Part shown: positions 653 through 61,074 of the stretch, piece after piece
Layout of the letters: each line of letters starts with the position of its first letter
Numbering within the stretch: position 1 is the first letter of the stretch
Assembly (NCBI GenBank): GCA_002869385.1
Contig: PKTB01000007.1
Coordinates: forward strand, 80,729 to 144,728
Origin: Marinilabiliales bacterium
GTDB taxonomy: Bacteria > Bacteroidota > Bacteroidia > Bacteroidales > ML635J-15
DNA: 64,000 nucleotides
Direction: 5' to 3'
Notes under the pieces: model-generated
Database searches by the model: none
Told to the model about the DNA's origin: nothing
The model's input: only the letters and a program-made list of their open reading frames with translations
Position numbers and translations under genes: made by a program

Positions 653-840
653 GGTACCACGGTACCACACGATGAAATCGTGCGGTAGCTGGGAAATCGC
701 GCGGTAGCGGTGTCCTTCGGCCCTTCGACCCTTCGACTTCGCTCAGGGACCGAAAGCTCAGGGACCGAAAGCTCAGGAACCTAAAGACGCGCGGTAGCGA
801 GGACGTGGGCACCACACGATGAAATCGTGCGGTAGCATCA
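652..840. repeat. Composite GC-rich intergenic element. Two near-identical 29-bp hairpin units flank short tandem repeats.
   Basis: GGTACCACACGATGAAATCGTGCGGTAGC at 661-689 recurs at 808-836 with one change. Between them lie CCCTTCGA-type 8-mers and CTCAGGGACCGAAAG x3 (15-bp period). GC content is far above the flanking DNA. Confidence 0.9.
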
Positions 841-869
841 AGAGTTAAAAAAGTTTAAAAACGAAAAAT

Positions 870-4977: not shown

Positions 4978-7602
4978 TTATTTTTGAATAATCAGCTTTT
5001 TATTAATCACAAATTTATCACTGATGATATCAATAAAATACAAACCATTTGAATATTCAGAAGTTGATAACGGATATATAGTACCTGAGAATTCTGATAA
5101 ACTATAGCTATTTATTTCTTTCCCAATATTGTAAAATATTTTGATTGTATTTACTTTTTCAATACAATTATTGATGTCAATATTAACAATGTTATTTGCC
5201 GGGTTTGGAAAAAGTGAGATAGAATTTGAAATGTCTTCAATTTCATTAATTCCGACATTTCTGGTTACAGATATATCAAGTAGGTATGATCCAGTTTCTC
5301 CTGTAAAATATGGCGCTACATTAAAAATAACAGTGCCCCCGTTTATGACACTAATATTTGAAGTCATAATGTCATCAAAGTTATCAGACCACCCAGAATT
5401 ATTTTTATAAGAAAACATAACGTCTGCAGTATATGTCTGACCATTTCCACTGTTATAACTGTCGTGAATTCTTGCGTTGATTGAGTAATTATAGCCTGCA
5501 GGCAGGATAATCTTATAGTAGTCTAAATCTGAATTTATATGAATATTTGAACCTATTGTTGTTTTTGTAGCTGTTCCCCCTGAAAAAGATAATGGTAAAT
5601 TGTATGCAGAACCTTCATTATTATTATCTTCATAGATGTCGGGAGATAAAGAGGGGGAAACAACCGTAATATTAATGGGGTTGGAATAATATTGGCCGCC
5701 AACCAAATACCAATTTGAAGAACCATTTTGTAATTCTTCAATTGTTAAAATGTAAGTGCCAGGAGTTGCGATAACAGATGGTGTACTAACTGTTATAAAA
5801 GGGGAAGAATAAATATAACCTTCAGGCAAACCATTTGTTTCATTGATGGTTCCAATTGTTTGAACAAAGTTACCCTCCAAATCATATAAATTTGCCCTAT
5901 AAGAACCATAATATGTGGTGGTGCTGCCATTAATCAAATTAAAATTTACGGATGCTGATTGTCCTTGAACAAAAGTACTCGGATCAATAGCCGAATAAAG
6001 TTGAATATTGTTTGCAGGTGAATTAATGGTGACGTTTATTGGATTTGTATATGATGAGTTCCCAGCTAGAGTCCAATTTTCATTAGGATCCCGATAAAAT
6101 ATTCCCACCTTATAATTATCAGGTACCGTCAGAATGCCTGAATTTGAAAATGTTAACCCATTGGTATAATGGTAGCCCGGCTGTAAAGGGGAACTACCTG
6201 CAGATAGAATTTGAATATAATCGATAAAGTTGCCTGATGCTGTAAACAGGGCAGCACAATAATCACCACTAAAATTATTGGTGCCAGCATTTGTCACATC
6301 CACGTTTACAGTAAATGATTGAGCAAAGTTTACAGGGTTTGGAGAAATTGATATTGAGGAGAACAAGTTGATTGTTGATATAACGCTTCCGGGAACAGGT
6401 TGAATACCGATTAAAGCCTGCTGCCCTTCATTATATGTCCCAGCACCAGCACCAGTCCCGCCAGTACCCGGATTCAAAGCATCAAGGGTGAAAAATCCGT
6501 CACAATATCCTCCCCAGCCCCAATTCATGTGAAAATAATCATTATTATCATATCCATCACAGACAAAAGTATGGCCACCTTGACCAAAACCAGCATATTG
6601 AATTGGCCTTCTGGCATTTAAGTCTGTTTTTAAAATATTTATCCAGTTAGAGTCAGAATAATTATCCCGTTTTAATCCTTGTAGAGTCGTTGGATCATAG
6701 CCAAAATATGTTTTAAATGCATATTCAGAACATTGTTCAGGTGTTGGAGATCCTGAAATAATAACATAAGACCCACTTGAAGTTGGTCCATATCCCATTT
6801 CGACAGCAACTCCACAATGATACATTATTGTTGCAACAGCCGTGTTTGCACCATTAATATTGTTTGGCATTGAGCTCCAATCATATGTTGTAGCGGCAAA
6901 ATTTGCGGATAATGTCCCATATTGATCATGATTATATGAATGAAATCCTGTGCCAGTTGTCGGATAGTTCCAGAATTTCATAATTTGAGCCATGGCAGTT
7001 GCCGGACATCCGGCAACACAATGATATCAATTTGCAGAACCAGCATCAACGTCGTAAGGGCATAAGGCATTTACATAAGGTGATTGTGACCAAGTTGTCG
7101 TAAGCAGAGGATATACACTCATTGTTTCTTTGTCAGTATTAATAGGATACCCGCCCTCTAAGGATTTCCATTCATTTTCAATAAACAGATCGGCTTTATA
7201 GCCATTTATTAATACATCAGTTATTTCCTTTTTGTATTTTTCGATTAGTTTTATGAATGCGGGGGGCAAATTAGAGTCAAAATAACTGCCAGAAAGAGAA
7301 TAACCTAAAATGGGGGTAATATTATCATCTGCCGAAATAATCACAAAACCATCGCTTTGCTCAACATTAAAAATATATAGCAAAGCCGTTTCCTTAATTG
7401 TCTCTTTTTGATTTGCGATTTCATTCGACTTAGCAATATAAGCAAGCGAAAATGAAACTTCGGACAAACTTTTGTCTTTGGCTTTCTGTATGTAGAAATT
7501 TTTAGCAATTTTTAATGCCAATACCGGGTTTACCGGGTTAGTGAAAATATTTAATGTAAATGCACAACCCAATAATAAGAGCAATATTTTTTTTATAAAC
7601 AT
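4978..7602 (-). CDS. C10-family (streptopain/SpeB-like) cysteine peptidase with N-terminal prodomain, pre-peptidase C-terminal (PPC) domain and T9SS CTD. It is interrupted by an in-frame TGA at 7027-7029.
   Basis: This is one 875-codon frame. The sequence ...DAGSAN*YHCVAGCPATAMAQIMKFW carries the C10 catalytic-Cys motif just after the stop. The PPC-like part is DIYEDNNNEGSAYNL...DLDYYKI. The tail is LFPNPANNIVNIDI...GLYFIDII. Confidence 0.8.
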
Positions 7603-7654
7603 TTTGTTTTTGACGATGTTATTAATTCGTTAGAAAAGCGATGTTGTATATAGT

Positions 7655-7707
7655 GCCGGAAACCCACGCGTTCAGGGAAACCCACGCGTTTGGAAACGCG
7701 CGGGAAC
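7655..7707. repeat. GC-rich hairpin element of the same family as 652-840
   Basis: GGAAACCCACGCGTT occurs twice in tandem. It is followed by the hairpin CCCACGCGTTT-GG-AAACGCGCGGG (7681-7704). The element lies just upstream of the C10 peptidase start. Confidence 0.8.
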
Positions 7708-7753
7708 GGTGAGGTAAATAGCTCCTGGTTACACAATTGTGATTTTTCATTTA

Positions 7754-9169
7754 CTATAATTTTATTATTGGTTGAGTTTTTAAAATGGTTCCATTATTTT
7801 CAATAACAATGAATATCAATCCAGAACTAAGCTGAGACAAGTCTATCATTTGCTCCCCAGTAGTGTGTGGATTAATTTTCAAGTCCATATATAATAATCC
7901 TATATTGTTGAATATTTTTATATTTAAAGTTTCATATGAATTGTCATTGAATTTAATGAAGAGTTTATCATTTGTAGGATTTGGGAATATTTCAATATTG
8001 TAATACTCATTGTCAGTAACAGAGATAATCTTTGATAAATAGAATTCACCATCATAATCAACATTTCTAAGCCTGTAATACAGATAATTATTTGCAGGAA
8101 AAACAGGAGAATAATCTGTAAGAGAATAGAATTGAGTTGTTATTGAATTTCCTTTAGAGTCAACAATGCCAACCACATCAAAATCAATAGAATTATAAGA
8201 TCTCTGAACTTCAAAATAATCAGTATTTAACTCTGATGCAGTTATCCAGGAAAGCAACACATTGTCGTTTTTGTATATTCCGTTAAAATCGAGTAGTGTA
8301 ACCTGTAATGGTGAAGATTCATCTGAAATAGTCCATTTGCTGAAATGTGTTGTGTTTACACTAATTGTTCGAGGATCTGAAGATGAAACATCTTGGGTCG
8401 AACCAATTTGTTCCCAGACGGAATAAGGAGATTCGCTACTCCATATAACAGCGCTGACTGGGTCTTTAGCATTATCAAATTCTGAGAGCCATGAGAATTG
8501 CAAACTACGTCCATTATCAGGAGAAAAATCACTTTCGATTATCCAAGATGCAGATATGGAAGTGTTACTTCCACTTGTAATAATACCTTCTGTTCCATTG
8601 ATTCTAGTAATGGTAAGATTGCCGATGTCATCAGTTCCGCTACTTATCATGCAACCTAAAAAGTCGATTGAATTTGTTCCTATATAACGGCTAGTCATTA
8701 ATGCTTTACCAACTATATAGCTTGTAGATGTTTCTGAAGGAGTTGAAGCTCCAGTATTGAAATATAGAGTATTTAATGTTTCGGGTGTTGAGGAATTATG
8801 TGTGTGTACAATACCGTCTGAAAAAACGAATGAGTTATTAATAGTAATGTCATTAGATAAATATATTCCGGACGGATTATTTATTTCGGCATCATAAAAG
8901 GTAAAAGGACAGGTAGAACTTAGTATGTCCTGGGAGCTACTCCCGTTAAATAATATTTTGGAATTGTTTCTTGATGTAAAAATATTATTATTAATCAGAT
9001 TGTCTTTTATTTTTAAAATGCCTGAAACGTCAATTGTGCCATTATTCTCTATGATACCAGTACTCTGGATAGCGCTGTTTTGCAGAAGGGTTAAATTAGT
9101 TGAAGGAGTAATGAGTATTTGTCCAGATACAGATAAAGAAATGTAAAGAAAAATTAATACTGTGCTCAC
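7754..9169 (-). CDS. T9SS-sorted surface protein of unknown function, paralog of 57049-58317
   Basis: It shares blocks with the paralog (LNTLYFNTGAS, SSRY(I/L)GTN, FSKWT(I/V)SD). Its CTD is IEIFPNPTNDKLFIKF...GLIFIVIE. Confidence 0.6.
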   Translation of the reverse strand: MSTVLIFLYISLSVSGQILITPSTNLTLLQNSAIQSTGIIENNGTIDVSGILKIKDNLINNNIFTSRNNSKILFNGSSSQDILSSTCPFTFYDAEINNPSGIYLSNDITINNSFVFSDGIVHTHNSSTPETLNTLYFNTGASTPSETSTSYIVGKALMTSRYIGTNSIDFLGCMISSGTDDIGNLTITRINGTEGIITSGSNTSISASWIIESDFSPDNGRSLQFSWLSEFDNAKDPVSAVIWSSESPYSVWEQIGSTQDVSSSDPRTISVNTTHFSKWTISDESSPLQVTLLDFNGIYKNDNVLLSWITASELNTDYFEVQRSYNSIDFDVVGIVDSKGNSITTQFYSLTDYSPVFPANNYLYYRLRNVDYDGEFYLSKIISVTDNEYYNIEIFPNPTNDKLFIKFNDNSYETLNIKIFNNIGLLYMDLKINPHTTGEQMIDLSQLSSGLIFIVIENNGTILKTQPIIKL

Positions 9170-9272
9170 GCGAGTAACTCGCGCGCGAGTTTTCGCCTTG
9201 GTCCTTTGACTACCCTCTTCGACTACCCCTTCGACTACCCCTTCGACTACCCCTTCGACTACGCTCAGGACT
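9165..9272. repeat. GC-rich element: palindrome CGCGAGTAACTCGCG plus a 12-13-bp tandem repeat
   Basis: The palindrome lies at 9169-9183. GACTACCCCTTC-type units occur x4 (9208-9260) and end in GACTACGCTCAGGAC. The TTCGAC..GCTCAGG core is the same as at 721-750, 52084 and 62843. Confidence 0.85.
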
Positions 9273-9512
9273 ATATGCTAAAAACGCAATCGAAAGCAAT
9301 GCCTTGATATTGCATGATGATAGAAATTTGCATTAACAATAATTGGTGCACAAATAGTACTTTTAATGCAATAGAGAGGTTGTACTAAGGGTGGCATAAA
9401 ATAAATTGATAAAAAGCCACCACACTTGGTTCCTTTTCGCTGATTTGCAGCTCTTTACATTTTATTTTTTGAACCATAATTACTAATTTTAATATTAAAG
9501 AAAATTTGAATT

Positions 9513-10736
9513 ATGGAAAAAAGAACAACACTAAATTTATTGTTTTATGTTAGAAAAACAAGATTGCTAAAAAATGGGGAAGCTCCTGTTTATATGCGAA
9601 TTACAGTTAACGGAGTTAGAAAAGATTTAGCACTAAATCAAGGGATTAATCCAAAATTGTGGGATTCTGTTAAAGGAAAAGCAAGTGGTAATTCAAAAAA
9701 CGCTCGTTCATTAAATTTGTATTTTGAAAGCATTAGAGTGCAGTTGCGTCAACACATGATAAATATGAGAGAGGAAAACATTCCAATTACTGCATTGACA
9801 TTAAAAAATAGATTTCAGGGAAAATCAACAAACGCAAAATACCTTATTGAAATGTTTAAAGAACATAATGAGAATATTCAAAAGCTTTCAGGAATTGATT
9901 TTGCACCCAATACAATAAGTAAATACAAAACAACACTGTTTTACACACAACTTTTTCTAAAATTGAAGTACAAATGTGATGATATAAATATAAAAGATGT
10001 AAATCATACATTTTTAACCAACTATGAATATTATCTCAAAACTGAAAGAAAATGTTCCCACAATACCGCAATGCGATATATCAAAGATCTTAGAAAGATT
10101 GTTAGAATTGCTCTTTCAAATGGATGGATTGGTAAAGACCCATTTGCAAATTATAAAATAAAATTTCATAAGGTTGACAGAGGTTTTCTAACTGAAGATG
10201 AATTACATGCTATTATAAATAAAACATTTACCATAAATCGATTAGAACAAGTTAAAGATTGTTTTTTATTTTCTTGTTTTACCGGATTGGCACATATAGA
10301 TTTAAAAAGATTAACACCTCAACATATTTTTAAAGATTCAAATAATAAATTATGGCTAAAAGTAAATCGTAAGAAAACAAACAGCTTATGCAGTGTTCCA
10401 TTATTACCAGTTGCTTTACAATTGATAGAGAAATATGAAAACAATCCATATTGTGTTGAAAATAATTTGTTATTACCTGTTCTTTCCAATCAATCGATGA
10501 ACGCATATCTAAAAGAGATTGCAGATATTTGCGGAATAACAAAAAGGCTTTCAAGCCACTTGGCAAGACACACATTTGCCACAACTATTACTCTTAATAA
10601 TGATGTCCCAATAGAAACTGTTAGCAAAATGCTTGGGCATTCTTCAATTAGTGTCACAAAAATATATGCCAGACTCCTAGACAAAAAAGTTGGTCGGGAT
10701 ATGCAACATCTTAATGATAAATTTACTTTATCTTAA
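9513..10736 (+). CDS. Tyrosine site-specific integrase of the Bacteroidota mobile-element type, with an N-terminal arm-binding domain
   Basis: The protein is 407 aa. The N-terminus LNLLFYVRKTRLLKNGEAPVYMRITVNG is typical of Bacteroidota integrases. Catalytic motifs are HLARHTFATT and LGHSSISVTKIYARL. Confidence 0.85.
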   Translation: MEKRTTLNLLFYVRKTRLLKNGEAPVYMRITVNGVRKDLALNQGINPKLWDSVKGKASGNSKNARSLNLYFESIRVQLRQHMINMREENIPITALTLKNRFQGKSTNAKYLIEMFKEHNENIQKLSGIDFAPNTISKYKTTLFYTQLFLKLKYKCDDINIKDVNHTFLTNYEYYLKTERKCSHNTAMRYIKDLRKIVRIALSNGWIGKDPFANYKIKFHKVDRGFLTEDELHAIINKTFTINRLEQVKDCFLFSCFTGLAHIDLKRLTPQHIFKDSNNKLWLKVNRKKTNSLCSVPLLPVALQLIEKYENNPYCVENNLLLPVLSNQSMNAYLKEIADICGITKRLSSHLARHTFATTITLNNDVPIETVSKMLGHSSISVTKIYARLLDKKVGRDMQHLNDKFTLS

Positions 10737-10765
10737 AACTTGCTAACTATCTATTCAATATTGTA

Positions 10766-10786
10766 GGGACTTTATGTCCCTTTTAT
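10766..10786 (+). terminator. Hairpin plus T-tract after the integrase gene
   Basis: GGGAC-TTTAT-GTCCC is followed by TTTTATT. The 10-mer ACTTTATGTC recurs at 11664-11673 in the first array spacer. Confidence 0.5.
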
Positions 10787-10994
10787 TATAAAACTTTTTG
10801 TTAAGTTTAGTAGAACAAGATGTGTGTAATCGTTAGAACTATGCAAAGTCTTCATTTTGAAGACTTCTTAAGAGTCATGGCTACAACCTTTGTGCAAATT
10901 ACTACCGTTTCAAATGGTTATATAATATGCTATTGTGGGTACTTTGAAACCAGAATTATTTATGTCTGTATTCCTTGGCTATTATATCAATATT

Positions 10995-11462
10995 TTACTG
11001 AAGTGCAATTCCCATTTTCATTTTTTCCTCATTAGAAAAACTTATTTCTTTTTCACATTTATAATATGCAACTAGATAGCTAATTGAAGGATGGTAATAT
11101 GTCTTATCAATAGTCTTGTCATTGTTTTTAGTTTCTGCATAAATCAATTTTCCATTATTAATGTAATAGTTAGTCGTTTCATTTTTATTTTCGTCCCTTA
11201 ACTGTACAATTTTAATTTCTTTTTCTTTTTTAAATACACATTGATTTATATTGCTAGTTTGAATTTTACTATTTATCAAGTTATCTGTTTCACATATTAT
11301 TTTGCGATAAGTATACCTTTCATTTTGTATTTCTAACACAATGTTATCTATCAAATCTATCAACTGTTCTTTACTTTGACTTTGCAATTCTGTATTTTGC
11401 CCAAATACACTTGTTATTGGTGATACAAATATTACAAATGCAAATAAAAATAGCTTTTTCAT
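10995..11462 (-). CDS. Hypothetical secreted protein (array block 1)
   Basis: It has a signal peptide (MKKLFLFAFVIFVSPITSVFGQ). No family was recognised. Confidence 0.45.
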   Translation of the reverse strand: MKKLFLFAFVIFVSPITSVFGQNTELQSQSKEQLIDLIDNIVLEIQNERYTYRKIICETDNLINSKIQTSNINQCVFKKEKEIKIVQLRDENKNETTNYYINNGKLIYAETKNNDKTIDKTYYHPSISYLVAYYKCEKEISFSNEEKMKMGIALQ

Positions 11463-19104: not shown

Positions 19105-19262
19105 TGCCTGTGTACGGTCGCAGCTATGTACCGTGCGGGACAGTAGTCCCGAAACCACGGTCGTATTAGCTGCGATACCAAATTTTTTTATTTTTTTTTA
19201 TTTTCTCATTTTACTAAAGCCAAAGTATAAAACTTGGCGGTGATTCGGAAAAGCGACTGCCT
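19105..19262. repeat. Structured repeat, family B copy 1
   Basis: A nested hairpin spans 19116-19175: GGTCGCAGCTA..ACCGTG-CGGGAC-AGTA-GTCCCG-AAAC-CACGGT..TAGCTGCGA. It is followed by an AT-rich linker and then TAAAGCCAAAGTATAAAACTTGGCGGTGATTCGGAAAAGCGACTGCC (19215-19261). Confidence 0.7.
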
Positions 19263-51812: not shown

Positions 51813-52083
51813 AAAATAAAAGAAAATACATCATATATTGAATTCATTAAAATCAAATTCCAAAAACCTTCAACAAAAGCACATAAAATATTATATAAAT
51901 ATTCATGTCAGAATTCTTGTATTTATTTGCTCTATTTTGTACATTTGTAATGTAATTGCAAAGTGATGCAATTAGGTTCATTTATATCATGTAAAGTATT
52001 GTACATCGCAAGTTGCCAATTCGGTGGCATTGTAAATTTAGAGTTCTATAAGTATTGCAGTAGAGGAGCTTTAAAATTATTTT

Positions 52084-52238
52084 CGACTACGCTCAGGGAC
52101 CGGCTCAGGGACCGGCTCAGGGACCGGCTCAGGGATTGGCTCAGAGACCAGCTCAGTGTGGTAGGGCAAGTAGAGGTACCACACGATAGAATTCCCGATA
52201 AAACGGGATAGACTGTGCGGTAGCGGCGGTAGCGGTGA
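52084..52238. repeat. GC-rich element: 12-bp tandem repeat plus a hairpin unit
   Basis: CGACTACGCTCAGGGACC is followed by GGCTCAGGGACC x3 and degenerate copies. After that comes GGTACCACACGATAG...CTGTGCGGTAGCGGCGGTAGCGG. Confidence 0.85.
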
Positions 52239-52461
52239 TAGAGATAAACAAAATAGTTTATAGAAATAGAGTATATGTTATTTGAAAAAGAGGCTAGTAT
52301 ATTTATCTTTTTTACAAAATGTTTTGTAATGAATCTTGCCAGATGATATAGAATGGCAAGTATTATCATTAGGATTATTTTAATTATAAAGCTCTTATCC
52401 ATAGTGTTTAAGTTTTTATTTGTTTCGAAAATATCATCTATTGTGAAGCAAAGTTTTTGAA

Positions 52462-54705
52462 TTATTCAATCATTATTTTACTTCTGTAAGTTTTGTCTTT
52501 GCTTTTTAATTCAATAAAATAGATACCTGAATTCAAATTTTTCTTCAATAAAAGAATTTCATTATTATTGATTTTATCTATCTTTCTAACAACCGAACCT
52601 TTTAAATCAGCCAGAATAAATGTGAATTGAGAATTATCAGGATTGTATAATTGTATTGTTGCACTTTCTGAGAAAGGATTAGGATAAATAGTCAATTCGT
52701 TGTCTGTATCACTATTAATAACAACTGAAGAGTTATTAAAGAAAGCGCAATTATCAATGATATTACTAAATGACATGTTTCCGTTAAAGTTTTCAGGATT
52801 GTTGGTGTAAACTCCAATCATGTAATAATAAACTGAATCTACATTGAAATCATTATAAGTATTGATGAAACCCCAAACAGAATCATGTAGAATCATGTTA
52901 GACTGAGAAGTTCCTCTATATATGTAGTATTGTTGTGGAGAGAAGGTATCACTTTCATCAACGTACTCATCCCATGCTAAACCCATTATTGAATTAAAAG
53001 CATCAAGTGAAAGGTGTATGGTTTTGTGATAATAGCTTGTTTCCGATTCGTTACCACAAGTGTCAATCACTGTTATTTTGTATTTGGAGCTTTGTTGATC
53101 TGGGTGTGAAAAGATATCAATAAATTCTCCGAGAGAATAAAAAGAAACGTTACCTACCTGTTCATAATCGTAAGGTACTGTTTCCTTGTAAATGATATAT
53201 AGCATAGTCCCTGCATCGTTTGTTTTTTGCCAGTAAATTTTGTTTTTCATGATGGATGTGTCAACAGTAACAAGGCAGACCTGCTCATTTTGATACGGCT
53301 GCTGTACAAATATATTTATCTGATCGGAGGCAGTACATCCTAACTGGTCTGTTACCGTTACAGAATAATTTGTCGTAATCGAAGGAGTGGCAGTAGTTGT
53401 ACTTATATTTGTGTCGGAAAGGCCTGAAGAAGGAGACCATAAGTAACCGAAAGCCCCGGACTCTACAGGATAATTACTTGTACAGTAAGCCATAAGTTTG
53501 GCAGACTCCCCTGGACAGAGGTTATCTGCCGTGCAGGCATCAGCATCAAGCTGTATAACTTTTAATTTGGCAGTATCGCTGGTAACTGAACGGCATAGGT
53601 TTGTTACTTCGCAAGTGAAATTTCCCTGATCTGTTAAGTTCAAATTGTTTATCGCATAGATGCTATCTGTAGCCCCCGGGATATCAATACCGTTTTTTTG
53701 CCACTGGTAAATTATGGGGGATGTGCCTTCGGCTGTTACTGAAAATGTAACATTACTGTTTAAGCATGTATTTTGTGCATCGGGGGGTGTGGTAATGCTT
53801 ACTGCTAATGGATTTTGTAATACAGATGAATATAAATATATTTTCATACTTAATTCATCAGATGTAAACGAACGAATACAATGCACACAACGATTTGTAT
53901 TTTTTTGTTAACCAGAAATTAAACACATATTTGCTTCTGCTGATGAATGTAGACAACATATAGCGCTTAGCTCACTACCACTTGATGAGCTTGTCCAATA
54001 ATAACCAGCCCCTATATTAAGTATTGAATTTAAAGAACAGACGTATGTCATTTGATACATAGCAGGTAAAAACCAATCATTATAATCGTTAAGTGAAAGT
54101 TCATCGCAAATACTGGCTGCAATAGGACGATCTGCACAATTCGCAATAATTAATCCGGTGTTTTCTTCTCCATCATAAAAATCATCTGTGCCTGAAATAT
54201 TGATTCCATTACAACCCCATTGAATTCCTGTACTTTGACTGGCGAGAGGAGATATTAGACCATTACCTACGCTATCAATAAAATAGACAATCCCACCTTG
54301 AAACAAATCACCAATAATAAGGTTTGCGGTAGTTGTTATTATTTTTACCTTAATTAAACTACTATACCAATAAGCGTTTTCACAGATAGTGGCATTTGAA
54401 ATTTCTGCCCTGTAAAACCATTTGCCTGTCGGGCTAAGCGTGGTTAAAAATTCATAAGGTGTTTAGGTCGCACTTTCGATGTTTATCCAATTAATACTGT
54501 CGGAGCTTTGCTGCCACTGTATTGTGCCATTTTGTCCACTTACATTTAAAACTATAGTGTCGCCAGCAAAACTTGCATACCATCCTGTTTGGGCAATTGT
54601 ATTTAGGCTAATAATAAGTACAAAAATAAGAAATAGAAAGTTTTTTAATGGAATCACATGATGCACTACGTACGGGAGTGAGTGTAATTGGTTGAAGTGT
54701 TTCAT
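52462..54705 (-). CDS. T9SS-sorted surface protein with a DUF1566-like lectin-type region, an Ig-like domain and a CTD. It is the tandem paralog of 54722-57043 and has in-frame TAA codons at 54463-54465 and 53908-53910.
   Basis: This is one 748-codon frame. The paralog reads through both equivalent positions. The Ig-like part is VTFSVTAEGTSPIIYQWQKNGIDIPGATDSIYAINNLNLTDQGNFTCEV. The CTD is LTIYPNPFSESATIQL...GIYFIELK. Confidence 0.7.
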
Positions 54706-54721
54706 AGTAAATGTTTAAATG

Positions 54722-57043
54722 TTATTTTATCATTATTTTTCCTGTGTAAACAAGGTCATCGCTGATCAATTTTAACAGATATATTCCGTGGTTAATTTGC
54801 TGTTTTTCAATTTGTATCTCATTTCCAGTAACATTAAATGTTTTTCTTATGATAGTCCCTTTTATATCACTTAAAGTTAGTATAAAGCTTTTGTTTTCAG
54901 GGTTGTAGAACTTTACGGTAGTAGTTTCATTAAAAGGATTAGGGTAAATAAATAATTTATGCTCTGTATTATTTTCAGATACATTAGAGGAATTATTAAT
55001 AAAACAACTGTTGTTAACGATGTTACTAAAAGACATATTACCGTTAAAATTATCAGGATTGTTTTTGCGGATACCAATCATGTAAAAATAAACAGAATCT
55101 ACATTATAATCATTAAAAGTGTTGATGAAACCCCAAACAGAATCATGCAGAACCATAGTTTCCGGTGATGCCCCTCTGTAGATGTAATATTTTGTAGGGG
55201 AGTAAACACCTGTCTGGTCAATGTACTCTTCCCAGCCTAGACACATAATGTCATCAAATGCATCCATGTTCAATTTTATAGTTTTATGGAAATCGGACAA
55301 TCCTGATTCATTACCACAAGAGTCCACTACTGTAATTTTATATTTATCACTATGTAAATTGGGGTGGGAAATAAGATCTGTGAATTCACCCGGATGTGAG
55401 GGACTGACATTGCCTGCTTGTATGTATATGTCAGGCTCTGCTTCCTTATAAATTATATATAGCATTGTACCAACATCATTTGTTTTTTTCCAATAAATTT
55501 TGTTTTTCATAATGGAAGTATCAACAGTTACGAGGCATACCTGCTCATTTTGATAAGGCTGTTGTACGAAAACGTTTACCTGATCTGATGATGTGCAGCC
55601 TAATTGGTCGGTTACCGTTACCGTGTAATTTGTTGTTACCGAAGGATTTGCAATAGTGTTAGCCTGAATTGTGGTTGAAAGACTTGTTGGGGGAGACCAT
55701 AAATAGCTAAAACTTCCTGATTCGACAGTGTAATTGCTTATGCAGCTAGCATTTAGTTTAGCAGTTTGACCTGGGCATAAGTTATCTACAGAACCTATGT
55801 TTGCATCGAGCTGAATAACTTTTAATTTAGCAGTATCGCTGGTGACAGAACGGCAAAGGTTGGTTACTTCGCAGGTGAAATTTCCCTGGTCTGTTAAGTT
55901 CAGGTTGTCTATTGTATAGATGCTATCTGTAGCCCCCGGGATATCAATACCGTTTTTTTGCCACTGGTAAATTACGGGGGATGTGCCTTCGGTTGTTACT
56001 GAAAATGTAACATCATTTCCCGAACATTTATTTTGAGTATTTGACTGTATAATTATATTTACTGAAATAGGATTATTTACAACAGTTGAGTACAAATATG
56101 TTTTAGCACTAAAATCATATGGAGTAAATGACCTCATACAGCGAACTCTTGAATTGGAATATCTTGGTGTGTTAGCAATCAAGGTCTGATAATATATGTT
56201 ACTTGTCGCAACAATCGCACGTTGGGGGTTATTGCAGGATGCGCTATTAGTGGAAGAAGTCCAGTAAAGTTTTGACATATCAGTATATCCTCCTTCATAA
56301 TCTGTTGAATGTATTTCTGTAAGATGGGAAGTGGGGTCGTTAAGTATAGGTATGTATTGAGCGATTGACGGTAAATACCAGTCGCTATATCCATTTAAGA
56401 TAAGATCATCACAAATACTTGCTGCAATTGGTCTTGTGTTGCAATTTGTTAATATTGTTGAAGTATTAACAGCCCCGTCAGTATCAGTTACATAAAACAC
56501 GAGATTGTCGCAGCCCCATTCCATGCTATCGCTTTGATCGTTTAATGGGATTACTTCTCCATAACCAGTACTGTCGGATATTGTTGTTAGACCACCATGA
56601 AACCAATCGCCTACAGACACTTGTGTTGTGTTTGTAATTATTTTTTGTTTCAAAACGCTACCATACCAGGAAGAATTTTCACAAAGAGCAGTATTTGTAA
56701 TTTCAGCCCTGTAGAACCATTTACCTGTAGGACTATCAGGGGTTAAAAACTCGTAAGTTGTAGCTGTCGCGTCATCAATATTAATCCAATTAATACTGTC
56801 GGAACTTTGTTGCCATTGGATCGTTCCATTTTGTCCACTTACATTTAAGACTATTGTGTCGCCAGCAAAACTTGCATACCATCCTGTTTGGGCAATTGTA
56901 TTTAGGCTAATAATCAGTACAAAAATAAGAAGTAGAAAGTTTTTTAATGGAACCACACAATTAAATCGTGCGGTAGCATTGAGGAGTTCGTAGTTCGAAT
57001 CTGCTGATGCAGAAAATTTTGATATTTTAGTCATATTTTTCAT
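54722..57043 (-). CDS. T9SS-sorted surface protein with a DUF1566-like region, an Ig-like domain and a CTD
   Basis: The DUF1566-like part is MEWGCDN...SICDDLILNGYSDWYLPSIAQ...LYWTSS...RVRCMRSF. It also has an Ig-like domain, and the CTD is LFIYPNPFNETTTVKF...GIYLLKLI. The start is uncertain: an in-frame GTG at 56956-56958 directly precedes the signal peptide. Confidence 0.7.
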   Translation of the reverse strand: MKNMTKISKFSASADSNYELLNATARFNCVVPLKNFLLLIFVLIISLNTIAQTGWYASFAGDTIVLNVSGQNGTIQWQQSSDSINWINIDDATATTYEFLTPDSPTGKWFYRAEITNTALCENSSWYGSVLKQKIITNTTQVSVGDWFHGGLTTISDSTGYGEVIPLNDQSDSMEWGCDNLVFYVTDTDGAVNTSTILTNCNTRPIAASICDDLILNGYSDWYLPSIAQYIPILNDPTSHLTEIHSTDYEGGYTDMSKLYWTSSTNSASCNNPQRAIVATSNIYYQTLIANTPRYSNSRVRCMRSFTPYDFSAKTYLYSTVVNNPISVNIIIQSNTQNKCSGNDVTFSVTTEGTSPVIYQWQKNGIDIPGATDSIYTIDNLNLTDQGNFTCEVTNLCRSVTSDTAKLKVIQLDANIGSVDNLCPGQTAKLNASCISNYTVESGSFSYLWSPPTSLSTTIQANTIANPSVTTNYTVTVTDQLGCTSSDQVNVFVQQPYQNEQVCLVTVDTSIMKNKIYWKKTNDVGTMLYIIYKEAEPDIYIQAGNVSPSHPGEFTDLISHPNLHSDKYKITVVDSCGNESGLSDFHKTIKLNMDAFDDIMCLGWEEYIDQTGVYSPTKYYIYRGASPETMVLHDSVWGFINTFNDYNVDSVYFYMIGIRKNNPDNFNGNMSFSNIVNNSCFINNSSNVSENNTEHKLFIYPNPFNETTTVKFYNPENKSFILTLSDIKGTIIRKTFNVTGNEIQIEKQQINHGIYLLKLISDDLVYTGKIMIK

Positions 57044-57048
57044 TACAG

Positions 57049-58317
57049 TTAATAGGTTTTAATTATTTTTTTTATTGAAATAGGATTGTTATCCTTGATA
57101 ATACTTAGAAAATAAACTGAAGGGTTGTAAAACTTCATGTCTATCAAAGTTTCATTGTTCTTTATAAAGCCACTGTCAATAATTTTTAAATTGGCATCAG
57201 TTAATATGTATTTATAGTAAACATTGCTTTTGTTGTTGTCTATTTTTATTATTAAATAATTAGTAACAGGATTAGGGAAAACTGAGATATTGTTGTTATC
57301 AAAAGTTGAAAGTTGTAATGGGATAGAATTATCAGACACCGTCCATTTGCCAAATAATGTGGTATTTACAGCAATGTTTCTAGGATTAGAGGCAGAAACA
57401 TCCTGAATTTCACCGATTTCGCTCCATGTTTCATAAGGGGCTGTACTTGTCCAGGCAATGGCATTTGTTACATCAATTTCATTATCAAGACCGGCAAACC
57501 ATGAAAATTGTATCTCGCGTCCGCTTAAAGGTTCATTGTTGCTTGTTATTGTCCAATTTGAAGCAATAGAAGAGTTTTCTACGGTAATAATGCTTTCGGG
57601 GCCGGTAATACGGGTAATTTCGATATTACCTATATCATCTGACCCATTACTGATATTACATCCAAGAAAGGCGAGAGCATTCGTTCCCAAGTAACGGCTG
57701 CTCATTACAGTTTCCCCGAGAATATAAGCAGAGGATATTTCTGTAGGGTCGGATGCCCCGGTATTAAAATACAGCGTGTTAAGAATTTGAGGAGAAGCCG
57801 AATTAAAAGTATTAACATTGCCATTAGATAATGCAAACGAATTGTTAATATAAACATCCGATGATAAATAAACGCCAAAAGGATTATTTAGTTCTGCATC
57901 GTAAAACAAAAGCGGGTCAGTATTACTCTCAAGGCTTTGCGGCGTATTACGGCTGAAAATGATTTTTGAATTGTTATTAGATGTAAAATCTGAAGTATTA
58001 AGCAAATCGCCTTTTGTAATTATTGTGCCGTGGTTGTTTATAGCACCATTATTATTAATAAAATCAGAGCTTACTAGTTGTGCGTTTTGTAATATGTCAA
58101 ACGTGGTAGATGGGCTAATGCTTAGTTGAGCTTGTACGGAAAAGTTAAGTAAAGCGAAAAGAAGTAATAGGATTAAACTGTGTGCCCACGCAAGTAACTC
58201 GCGCGGGAGAGCTGAGCTGACAATGGTACCACACGATACAATCGTGCGGTAGCGATAATGGTACCACACGATACAATCGTGCGGTAGCGATGATGGAATA
58301 TTAAAAAGTTTTTTCAT
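57049..58317 (-). CDS. T9SS-sorted surface protein, paralog of 7754-9169. GC-rich repeat elements are embedded in-frame in its signal-peptide region.
   Basis: It shares blocks with 7754-9169. The CTD is ISVFPNPVTNYLIIKI...SVYFLSII. The N-terminus reads MKKLFNI-[40 repeat-encoded codons]-LILLLLFALLNFSVQAQ. Confidence 0.6.
   Translation of the reverse strand: MKKLFNIPSSLPHDCIVWYHYRYRTIVSCGTIVSSALPRELLAWAHSLILLLLFALLNFSVQAQLSISPSTTFDILQNAQLVSSDFINNNGAINNHGTIITKGDLLNTSDFTSNNNSKIIFSRNTPQSLESNTDPLLFYDAELNNPFGVYLSSDVYINNSFALSNGNVNTFNSASPQILNTLYFNTGASDPTEISSAYILGETVMSSRYLGTNALAFLGCNISNGSDDIGNIEITRITGPESIITVENSSIASNWTITSNNEPLSGREIQFSWFAGLDNEIDVTNAIAWTSTAPYETWSEIGEIQDVSASNPRNIAVNTTLFGKWTVSDNSIPLQLSTFDNNNISVFPNPVTNYLIIKIDNNKSNVYYKYILTDANLKIIDSGFIKNNETLIDMKFYNPSVYFLSIIKDNNPISIKKIIKTY
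58177..58296. repeat. GC-rich hairpin elements lying inside the 5' end of ORF 57049-58317
   Basis: The hairpin CCCACGCAAG-TAA-CTCGCGCGGG lies at 58185-58207. Two tandem 35-bp copies of AATGGTACCACACGATACAATCGTGCGGTAGCGAT span 58222-58291. Confidence 0.85.
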
Positions 58318-59236
58318 AAGATTTTTTTTGTATTATTTGAGTCCACCAAAGTTGACTGTATTTTTGACTGATAATTGTGCGCAGATTGTTCTCAATTATA
58401 ATTAAACTGAGGTTTTTTGCTTCATCAATAAACCAAGTGTTGAAATCCACTTTTTTTATAGTGTATTTTTCGAAAATAAGATTGGTATTGTTTTTTTTTA
58501 TTAGTTTTAGTAGAATAAATGCGTTTTCGATTTCGATAACTGAAGTTACTTGGCCAGGTTTAATGCTGTTAAGGCTCAATCTGATTTGTGACTCTGGATT
58601 GGTGCAGTTGTAAGATTGTTTTTGATTGTATATTTTTGAGAAATCCTGTTTTAGCGTGTCGGTTGTGAATGAAAACTTTTCTTTTGGGAGAGGCTTTCCA
58701 TTGGAGAGTGCCTTGAATAAATCTTCGGCATTAAGTATGCTTTTGATGTGAAATTAGGGAGTGTACCAATAGTAGTTTCTTAGTTTTTGATTAATAATTT
58801 TAGGGGTAATGAATAAACGATAAAATGAAGCTGTGTCAGCACCAAAGATAGATTTAATTTTTTTTAAAATCTCAGGAGCGATTGTTGTAGAATCATAGTG
58901 ATTGATAAAACTAATAACTTCTGCATTAGTTGGGAGAATCCCATATTTTTGAGCGATTAGCTCTTCAAAAGTATCATTAACTAACATAATGAATGCCAAG
59001 GGAGCATCAACCTCAACATTACCGTATACTTTTTCAATATTTATTTTATATTGCACATCCTGAAACGAGATGTTAATATTATCTATCTGTGCAAGTATCT
59101 TTTGGTTAGGATTTAAAACGATATCTGTTTTTTCTGCAGTACCGATTTCGAACTTTTGGAACAAAAAATACAGTAAAAAAATTAAAACGCATCCTAGAGC
59201 CATTAAAAGAAATACTATTTTAGTTAGCTTATCCAT
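58301..59236 (-). CDS. Membrane-anchored protein with a weak parvulin/SurA-like PPIase resemblance. It has an in-frame TAA at 58754-58756.
   Basis: This is one 312-codon frame with an N-terminal TM segment. The sequence ...NYYWYTP*FHIKSILNAEDLF...LNSIKPGQVTSVIEIENAFILLKLI resembles the parvulin C-terminal strand pattern. The assignment is weak. Confidence 0.35.
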
Positions 59237-59241
59237 TTTTA

Positions 59242-61074
59242 TTAGTCTGTAATTATTAGTTTTTGTTTTTTTACTAATTTGGAATCTTTAGACACTAACA
59301 GAAAATATGTTCCTGAAGAAATATCTTTATTAAAAGTCAATTTTGTTTTACCTTCGGGGATATTACCGACAAACAAGGTTCTAATTTTTTGTCCATTGAT
59401 GTTATATAAAGTAATTTCAAAGCTTGCAAGTTGATCGTTTTGAATATTGACAAACCAAGAATCGTTACAAGGGTTTGGGAAAACACTTATATTATTATCA
59501 GCATTATTATTTAAATCGATTGAAACTGTGGCATAATTTATTTCTGCAATCCAAGTATCGAGACAGTGGTGAGTAGAACCTGAAAATAGTTTTTCATTTC
59601 CAAAGCAACCTGCAAGCCAGACCGTTGGGGATTCTGCATTATGCTTTCTTGCAATGCCAGTATATGCACCCCAAGGAGCAAGTCCATCAGATTCACCAAA
59701 ATCAACGTAAGAGTTCCAAGATTTTACTGTTACAGGATTTGACCAATTGAGTTGGTCATCACAGGATACTGCCATTAGTTCTGGTAAAATGTCGGGACTG
59801 GATCTTAAAAATGAAATAGCGACAGTTTTGTCATTAGAAGAAGATGTGAAAGAAGCAAGAGAGGGATAGGAACAGCTAGAATTCTCCAAACTAAAAACGG
59901 AAGATATATTTGTGAGAGTAGCTAAATTAAGGCGATTATAATTAATAGAGTTATTCCCTGAATCATCCTGATCAGAACTGAAAACATAATGGATAAACCC
60001 ATCAAGAAAAAATGCACTTAAGATTCTACAATCTCCATTGTTAAGGTAAACATCAGATTGAGCCTGAGAAACGCTGTCGGCTATGAAGAATTCAGGAACC
60101 TCAATTGAATTGATTTCAAAAGAAGGATTATTAAGCATATTATCAGTGAGGTGGTATAAGCTAACGGTAAAATTATTTAATACATGAGCTACGAAAAACA
60201 TACCAGGGCCATAATTACCTAACGCGCCATAAGAAGCGGGAACAATTGTAAAAGGTTTGTCGTCAATGTAATAGTAATAATTAAGGATAATATCGTCTCC
60301 ACTGTAACCATTTATTTTAAGGATTTGTAAAATTATTGATTGGTCAAAATTTCCTGAATCTTTATGCAAATTACCTGTTATAAAAATCTCATCAGTTGAA
60401 ACACCAATTCTAGGGAAAAGTAATCTTGTGTTGTTTTCCAAAAGATCACCAGGTATGACATAAACATTCCATTCGTCTAAAGGGTTGTTTGTGGTTGAGA
60501 AACAAATGACAATTTTTGCATTTTCGGCAACATAGCCATGAATAGCGGTAAAAACAAATCTGTCAGAACCGGAATCATATAAAACAACTGGGTCGTGCAG
60601 AGTAGAAGTTATATCGGGGTGATCAATAAAACTATTTAAAGATGTTGACAAAAAACAATTCCCAAAACTGTTATAAATGCAAATATTAGAATTTGCGAGA
60701 CTTACTATATATCCATCATTAGAAATAGCTAAAGAATTTTGAGCTGGAGAGTAGCCGTTGAAATAATTAGCTTCGAAGTTAGCACCTACAGTTAAAGATG
60801 TAGATGATTCTTTGGTGCCAATGGAGCCACGCGTCTGAAGACGCGCGGCAGAGAGAGATTTGTCAGAGGTGTTATAGTTATGTTGAATACTATTAAAATT
60901 TTCTTCAAATTTTGCAGTTTTGCCAATAGAGCAAAAAGATAAAACACCTGATTTTATTGCTGCATTGTGTTTTGATGGAGCTGTAAGATTTACTTTAGTT
61001 TCTTGTGCATTTGAAATAAGTATAGAAATAAAACATGAGGTAAAAAGAATAGATTTTAGAATTTTAGTTTTCAT
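59242..61074 (-). CDS. T9SS-sorted protein of unknown function
   Basis: It has a signal peptide. The CTD is ISVFPNPCNDSWFVNI...GTYFLLVS. A copy of the GC-rich hairpin motif lies in-frame at 60836-60859. Confidence 0.5.
   Translation of the reverse strand: MKTKILKSILFTSCFISILISNAQETKVNLTAPSKHNAAIKSGVLSFCSIGKTAKFEENFNSIQHNYNTSDKSLSAARLQTRGSIGTKESSTSLTVGANFEANYFNGYSPAQNSLAISNDGYIVSLANSNICIYNSFGNCFLSTSLNSFIDHPDITSTLHDPVVLYDSGSDRFVFTAIHGYVAENAKIVICFSTTNNPLDEWNVYVIPGDLLENNTRLLFPRIGVSTDEIFITGNLHKDSGNFDQSIILQILKINGYSGDDIILNYYYYIDDKPFTIVPASYGALGNYGPGMFFVAHVLNNFTVSLYHLTDNMLNNPSFEINSIEVPEFFIADSVSQAQSDVYLNNGDCRILSAFFLDGFIHYVFSSDQDDSGNNSINYNRLNLATLTNISSVFSLENSSCSYPSLASFTSSSNDKTVAISFLRSSPDILPELMAVSCDDQLNWSNPVTVKSWNSYVDFGESDGLAPWGAYTGIARKHNAESPTVWLAGCFGNEKLFSGSTHHCLDTWIAEINYATVSIDLNNNADNNISVFPNPCNDSWFVNIQNDQLASFEITLYNINGQKIRTLFVGNIPEGKTKLTFNKDISSGTYFLLVSKDSKLVKKQKLIITD

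Follow-up and report, generated by a model that had tools for sequence, protein, structure and literature searches.

Why does the coding region of a signal peptide carry 40 consecutive codons that lie entirely within GC-rich hairpins, and does the protein still leave the cell? The question is raised by an ORF in the window analysed here, a 64,000-nt stretch of the genome of a Marinilabiliales bacterium. The first-pass annotation of this DNA had proposed that the hairpins either disable export of the protein or act as an excisable or structural switch. Here we describe the make-up of the insert, the repeat family to which it belongs and its placement between two genes, and we weigh the readings of its presence in the ORF.

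Make-up of the insert and of the signal peptide around it

The minus-strand ORF 57049-58317 starts with MKKLFNI, runs through 40 hairpin-coded codons (PSSLPHDCIVWYHYRYRTIVSCGTIVSSALPRELLAWAHS; 58177-58296, 120 nt) and continues with LILLLLFALLNFSVQAQ. The features of the locus are listed below, with the hairpins named after the repeat family to which they are assigned in the next section.

57049..58317, minus strand: 422-aa ORF, probable T9SS-sorted secreted protein, whose 5' end holds the REP cluster
58301..58303, minus strand: TAA that ends the upstream 311-aa gene; the first REP unit follows at a distance of 4 nt
58297..58317, minus strand: ATG and codons 1-7 (MKKLFNI), with a 17-nt overlap with the end of the upstream gene
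58254..58288, minus strand: REP-A unit 1, 35 nt; stem-loop 58264-58284, CCGCACGAT-TGT-ATCGTGTGG; covariance model 45.0 bits, E = 1.4e-9
58219..58253, minus strand: REP-A unit 2, 35 nt, direct tandem copy; stem-loop 58229-58249
58177..58218, minus strand: REP-B module; stem-loop 58186-58206, CCGCGCGAG-TTA-CTTGCGTGG; covariance model 36.7 bits
58126..58176, minus strand: signal-peptide part with the hydrophobic core and the cleavage region, LILLLLFALLNFSVQA/Q cleavage; Kyte-Doolittle maximum 3.17 at residues 47-57

The ORF reading and the hairpin folds bear out the first-pass claim that GC-rich elements sit in frame in the signal-peptide coding part. The further claim that a signal peptide appears once the 120 nt are taken out is likewise supported, as the flanks alone form, by eye and hydropathy, a canonical n-h-c arrangement, with LILLLLFALL as h-region and VQA/Q as c-region. 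Translation from the ATG at 58317 would give a predicted signal peptide of 64 residues with intact h and c regions; its n-region, extended through the insert, comprises 47 residues with five K/R against two D/E (net charge +3). A frame scan rules out a canonical start codon downstream of the insert: as had been stated at first pass, no in-frame ATG, GTG or TTG occurs between the insert and the hydrophobic core, where the near-cognate ATC at codon 49 stands alone. Within the insert, an in-frame GTG is found at codon 17, and the GTG in the hairpin 3' arm is out of frame. The label of T9SS cargo, also given at first pass, holds more firmly for a paralogue than for the target: the sorting domain of the target scores 21.7 bits against Pfam PF18962 (Por_Secre_tail; cut-off 27) and has no NCBIfam match, whereas that of its 52%-identical paralogue reaches 40.4 and 26.5 bits, over the Pfam and NCBIfam (TIGR04183) cut-offs, respectively.

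The two REP-A units are direct repeats identical at 34 of 35 positions. The GC fraction of the insert is about 0.5, as compared with 0.33 for the genome, and its RNA folds at -50.7 kcal/mol (z = -5.3), a value equalled by none of 200 shuffles. A 28-nt core has four matches in the window versus none expected, and an Rfam search of the window matched no family. Stop codons are absent from all three sense frames of the insert and present in all three antisense frames. Since the insert is stop-free in every sense frame, retention of the reading frame needed only a length divisible by three; the actual length is 3 x 40 nt, and the chance of such divisibility is about one in three. The earlier remark that this frame of the insert is free of stops is thus true and at the same time unremarkable. 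The 35-nt and 50-nt modules, taken alone, each break the frame. Programmed translational bypass, as in T4 gene 60 or the mitochondrial byps, was considered and rejected, as an in-frame, stop-free insert leaves nothing to bypass.

Assignment of the hairpins to a REP/RAYT system

REP elements, which are short palindromes, owe their spread to a REP-associated tyrosine (HUH/Y1) transposase, RAYT, and the literature on this system (the REPtron) reportedly also includes work by Bertels and Rainey in 2011 and by Ton-Hoang in 2012. REP and BIME elements and their RAYT transposases have been described by Nunvar 2010 (PMC2817692) and Di Nocera 2013 (PMC3733652); for Bacteroidota, the latter lists CGTC-tagged repeats only. 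In the present genome, the 28-nt core recurs on another contig, C18, which carries a RAYT gene (C18:669362-669913, minus strand, 184 aa). Its product scores 86.7 bits against the NCBIfam equivalog NF047646 (cut-off 80) and 41.8 bits against Pfam PF01797 Y1_Tnp (cut-off 23), with an HVH motif recognised by eye; a search of other assemblies returned no record of the protein. On its upstream side, the RAYT gene is flanked by seven tandem 65-nt units, each composed of a REP-A hairpin and an AT-rich linker (C18:670004-670425, minus-strand copies), and on its downstream side by two inverted copies (C18:669081-669301, plus strand). One of these flanking copies, C18:670399-670419, has exactly the stem-loop of both REP-A units of the target. 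Sister genomes of the genus carry RAYT orthologues (69-76% identity) with REP-A, CCGCACGAT-loop-ATCGTGTGG, on their flanks, and a RAYT paralogue (~45% identity) is there flanked by REP-B, CCGCGCGAG-TTA-CTCGCGTGG, which is the type of the third hairpin of the target.

Because REP-A hairpins flank RAYT genes both here and in sister genomes, and REP-B hairpins do so in sister genomes, we conclude with high confidence that the GC-rich hairpins of the target are REPs of a REP/RAYT system. The first-pass annotation had rightly set them apart as discrete GC-rich hairpins and had missed this identity. The 120 nt are therefore a small BIME-like cluster of two direct REP-A units and one REP-B hairpin. 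The inverted REPIN form, in which two REPs make up one long hairpin, is the one thought to be mobile; the REP-A doublet of the target is direct, not inverted, and is thus no REPIN.

Other repeats were seen around the RAYT genes. The 65-nt periodic copies on C18 were also considered as a CRISPR array, which was rejected as their "spacers" are identical too, leaving a plain tandem repeat; two of the seven units in this array carry a compensatory stem variant (GAC...GTC). Three further Y1/RAYT-like genes on C18 (688400-688918, 351957-352472 and 543522-543797) have their own flanking palindromes (GCTCGGATT...AATCCGAG; TCAAGCGCGA...TCGCGTTTGA; and long palindromes of 16-20 bp, respectively), and the genome therefore holds several REPtrons. 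REP-B flanks none of these three genes.

The REP stems are 9-11 bp long with loops of 3-4 nt. The stem analysis used an alignment of 29 different copies, taken from the present genome and from relatives, and this alignment also served to build a covariance model. Of the stem cells, 96.9% are paired, four pairs vary on both sides and none of 500 shuffles matches the observed value, which shows structural constraint on the REP hairpin. All 29 copies have G.T as their third stem pair. REPs typically bear a conserved GTAG or CGTC tag at one end of the palindrome. In REP-A and many further copies, the pentamer GCTAC, read as GTAGC on the opposite strand, lies next to the foot of the stem or overlaps it; REP-B copies have CTC or ATC at this position. 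By comparison of strands, GCTACCGC was counted 30 times on the strand of the element and seven times on the opposite one.

With the covariance model, the 4.25-Mb assembly yields about 27 copies: nine round the RAYT gene and about 18 at 44.6-141.6 kb of C5, the contig that holds the window. Most copies are intergenic, and the total is low for a REP family and clustered. The C5 stretch (C5:44600-141600, corresponding to window 1-60900 and the sequence upstream of it) is rich in integrase, defence and T9SS-cargo genes and is the sole REP stretch outside the REPtron; this confinement to about 100 kb may mean that the region was acquired or that insertion is biased locally. On C5, every copy is on the minus strand, those with plus-strand gene neighbours included, which rules out a transcript-linked orientation and points to a chromosomal strand bias. 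Members of the IS200/IS605 family insert into single-stranded DNA at the replication fork, and the strand bias on C5 would fit single-strand HUH transposition of this kind. Among 64 REP copies examined in sister genomes, none lies in a convincing ORF, and most form inverted pairs.

The elements share with known REP/BIME sequences a short, GC-rich imperfect palindrome, a GCTAC/GTAGC head in REP-A and many other copies, G.T pairs in the stem, presence in many copies, inverted placement around a RAYT gene and a position just 3' of an upstream ORF. They differ from them in the low copy number (~27), in the restriction outside the REPtron to one 100-kb stretch and one strand, in the single or direct-tandem units found here in place of inverted REPINs, in the host, a Marinilabiliales-like MAG of the Bacteroidota, and in the location inside a signal peptide.

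Placement after the upstream gene and REPs in neighbouring genes

The upstream 311-aa gene is a single ORF in the ENA and JGI assemblies. REPs between co-directional ORFs usually lie within ~20 bp of the 3' end of the upstream ORF (PMC3733652). The cluster comes to lie inside the downstream ORF because the target ATG (58317) overlaps the upstream gene by 17 nt; codon 8 of the target merely happens to coincide with the usual post-stop position of a REP.

Further REP copies of the window are found in or beside neighbouring genes.

56953..56973, minus strand: degenerate REP-A at the 5' end of a 773-aa gene (54722..57043); covariance model 39.6 bits
54650..54678, minus strand: decayed REP remnant at the matching place in a 747-aa paralogue (start 54705)
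60827..60848, minus strand: in-frame REP in the gene of a 610-aa T9SS protein (59242..61074), coding SAARLQTRGS, a variable linker after the signal peptide
9160..9192, minus strand: REP-B 5' of the hydrophobic core in the gene of the 471-aa paralogue of the target (7754..9169)
657..842, minus strand: intergenic composite in which short tandem modules, GGTCCCTGAGC and GTCGAAGG, lie between the arms of REP hairpins

In the 773-aa gene, the degenerate REP-A sits between MKNMTKISKF... and the hydrophobic core, and its 3' arm contains an in-frame GTG (56954-56956). The 773-aa and 747-aa genes show a 39-nt (13-codon) difference upstream of the REP remnant, with the frame from the MK start kept. When the 610-aa protein is aligned with 19 homologues, homology is seen both before and after the REP-coded linker. 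The 471-aa paralogue has its predicted GTG start (9167-9169) within the 3' arm of REP-B, with no MKK n-region before it; REP-B is identical at 27 of 29 nt between this gene and the target, as compared with ~50% in the flanks and 52% between the proteins. As REP copies that are older and decayed have stayed in frame while the genes holding them are intact, these cases suggest that REP inserts are tolerated here rather than disabling.

Side observations concern the same neighbourhood. The 773-aa (54722-57043) and 747-aa (52462-54705) genes are near-identical from PLKNFL..., immediately ahead of the hydrophobic core, and differ upstream of the REP remnant, which suggests a duplication or conversion with its boundary at the REP. 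Short, GC-rich tandem modules, GGTCCCTGAGC(TTTC/CG) as well as (G)GTCGAAGG(G), accompany REP hairpins or lie between their arms at window positions 657-842, 9200-9272 and 52081-52244, and the same composites are found at C5:55430-55625, 60521-60636, 72513-72577 and 147549-147606. Unrelated to the REPs is a further repeat family, ...CTGTCCCGCACGGTACATAGCTGCGACCGT..., with copies at window 19110-19164, at C8:63633, 64614, 69353 and 70261, and at C18:155117.

The insert is identical in three independent assemblies (that of the window, ENA and JGI). Two stretches of the window, one of 7,269 nt with three REP sites and one of 6,416 nt with the REP of the paralogue, are collinear with the ENA and JGI contigs, and no indel was seen at any REP site compared among the three assemblies. 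An empty-site allele or orthologue was found neither in 40 relatives nor in two metagenome scans, and a database of 5.8 billion proteins returned the target protein itself as the sole match and no orthologue. As a separate matter, the assembly of the window differs from the ENA and JGI assemblies by G:C>T:A changes only, at ~1.5 per kb (window 54464-61000 and 6949-11377; 10-11 in 7.3 kb and 11 in 6.4 kb). Several of them create in-frame stop codons, with TAA 58754-58756 splitting the 311-aa gene and TGA 7027-7029 splitting a peptidase C10 gene; these changes look like sequencing or assembly damage and not biology.

The in-frame cluster as a probable passenger and the readings against it

The best explanation of the locus, to which we assign a probability of about 0.7, is that a cluster of the REP/RAYT system is carried as a tolerated passenger and is not a device. 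That the cluster is an in-frame insertion which the gene tolerates is most likely, and we hold this with moderate confidence. For the disabled export and the excisable or structural switch proposed at first pass, our analysis yielded no support. Under the passenger reading, the cluster would have been inserted, or expanded by tandem duplication, a few bases past the stop of the upstream co-directional gene, and the ORF would have survived owing to the lack of stops in this orientation and the total of 3 x 40 nt. With the ATG at 58317 presumably the start in use, the result would be a tolerated insertion that lengthens the n-region of the signal peptide, export probably being retained. The stable hairpins, which begin 22 nt past the AUG, may lower or uncouple translation of the target as a likely side effect, and they may shield the 3' end of the upstream transcript.

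Parallels exist for such an arrangement. In autotransporters, the extended signal peptide region (ESPR) precedes an ordinary n-h-c part as an N-terminal extension, making a Sec signal peptide of 50-60 residues with which export works. The target likewise has a long N-terminal extension before its n-h-c part, whereas the ESPR is a conserved protein motif and not a repeat insertion; no homology is claimed. Intragenic REPs are known, many of them NH2-terminal and in clusters coding 43-82 residues, with the caveat that such N-terminal cases may in reality be extragenic (PMC3733652). The classic parallel is that of the Rickettsia palindromic elements (RPE; Ogata et al. 2000), which, according to the passages cited, lie in frame in protein genes (PMC3733652, PMC3184786). 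As in the target, palindromic repeats are there carried in frame with the genes intact, and proteins decorated N-terminally by RPEs are, in those passages, reported to be expressed. By comparison, RPEs are ~100-150 bp long, specific to Rickettsia and unrelated in sequence, and they are not described as having a cognate RAYT link of this kind. The target is thus a rare but already described kind of event.

Some observations speak against a mere passenger. Because the 35-nt and 50-nt modules each shift the frame, the cluster either arrived whole or passed through a broken intermediate that was rescued, which hints at selection or at a history that cannot be reconstructed. The shared spot of REP-B in the 52%-identical paralogue, with a conservation far above that of the flanks, fits the passenger model only through a target preference, a recent independent insertion or a survival bias. 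Furthermore, REPs lie at the n/h junction in several neighbouring secreted-protein genes, as against none of the 64 sister-genome copies in a convincing ORF.

The main rival, which we regard as unlikely, is a recent knock-out in which the cluster blocks translation or export, making the ORF a young pseudogene still free of stops. A very stable structure (-50.7 kcal/mol) directly after the start codon would act in this direction, the identity of the REP-A cores to the master copy speaks for youth, constraint has no orthologue on which it could be judged, and the N-terminus of the paralogue has itself lost its MKK n-region. Against a knock-out, the frame is retained over 120 nt, older REPs have stayed in frame in neighbouring genes that are intact, and behind an extension of net positive charge the h and c regions are preserved.

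That the REPs are more than passengers, serving either as a frame-toggling contingency locus or as RNA hairpins gating the translation start and export of T9SS cargo, is quite improbable and finds no support in our analysis. If true, a domesticated REP/RAYT system would be a regulator of a secretome island. Taken singly, a selected regulator, in which REP hairpins at the 5' ends of adjacent genes for secreted proteins control translation initiation or targeting, for example through a GTG start hidden in the 3' arm, is less probable again. It draws on the position of a REP immediately before the hydrophobic core in four genes (422, 471, 773 and 747 aa), on an in-frame GTG in the 3' arm in three of the four, on the invariant G.T pair, which folds (as G.U) on the mRNA strand only, and on a conservation of REP-B far above that of its flanks. 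However, the 3'-arm GTG of the target itself is out of frame, the REPs keep their strand beside plus-strand genes, as expected of a chromosomal and not a transcript bias, the family is extragenic in relatives, and the four genes are two paralogue pairs and hence few independent events. A contingency switch, toggling the gene by 35-nt slippage (35 = 2 mod 3) or restoring the short signal peptide by RAYT excision, is very improbable: two direct 35-nt units are present, REP arrays do expand in this genome (seven 65-nt units by the RAYT gene) and the RAYT is intact, but the length is constant in three assemblies at the target and the other REP sites compared, the doublet is direct as opposed to the inverted REPIN form of relatives, and there are only two copies; we know of no demonstration of RAYT excision in vivo. 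Were a switch or a regulator real, REPs would gain a concrete role in the control of secreted proteins.

With the passenger reading preferred, the GC-rich elements of the window are now assigned to a REP/RAYT system in a Bacteroidota lineage. The target stands out by its Bacteroidota host, its position in a signal peptide, the lack of a downstream start and the clustering of the family in 100 kb. The odd placement is explained by the gene overlap together with the habit of REPs to settle just past a stop, and the locus would be a clean case of a signal peptide with a REP cluster read through in it. An open frame across a REP is weak evidence of function, since no sense frame of the element contains a stop. 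For annotation, the lesson is that long N-terminal extensions of secreted proteins can be repeat-coded.
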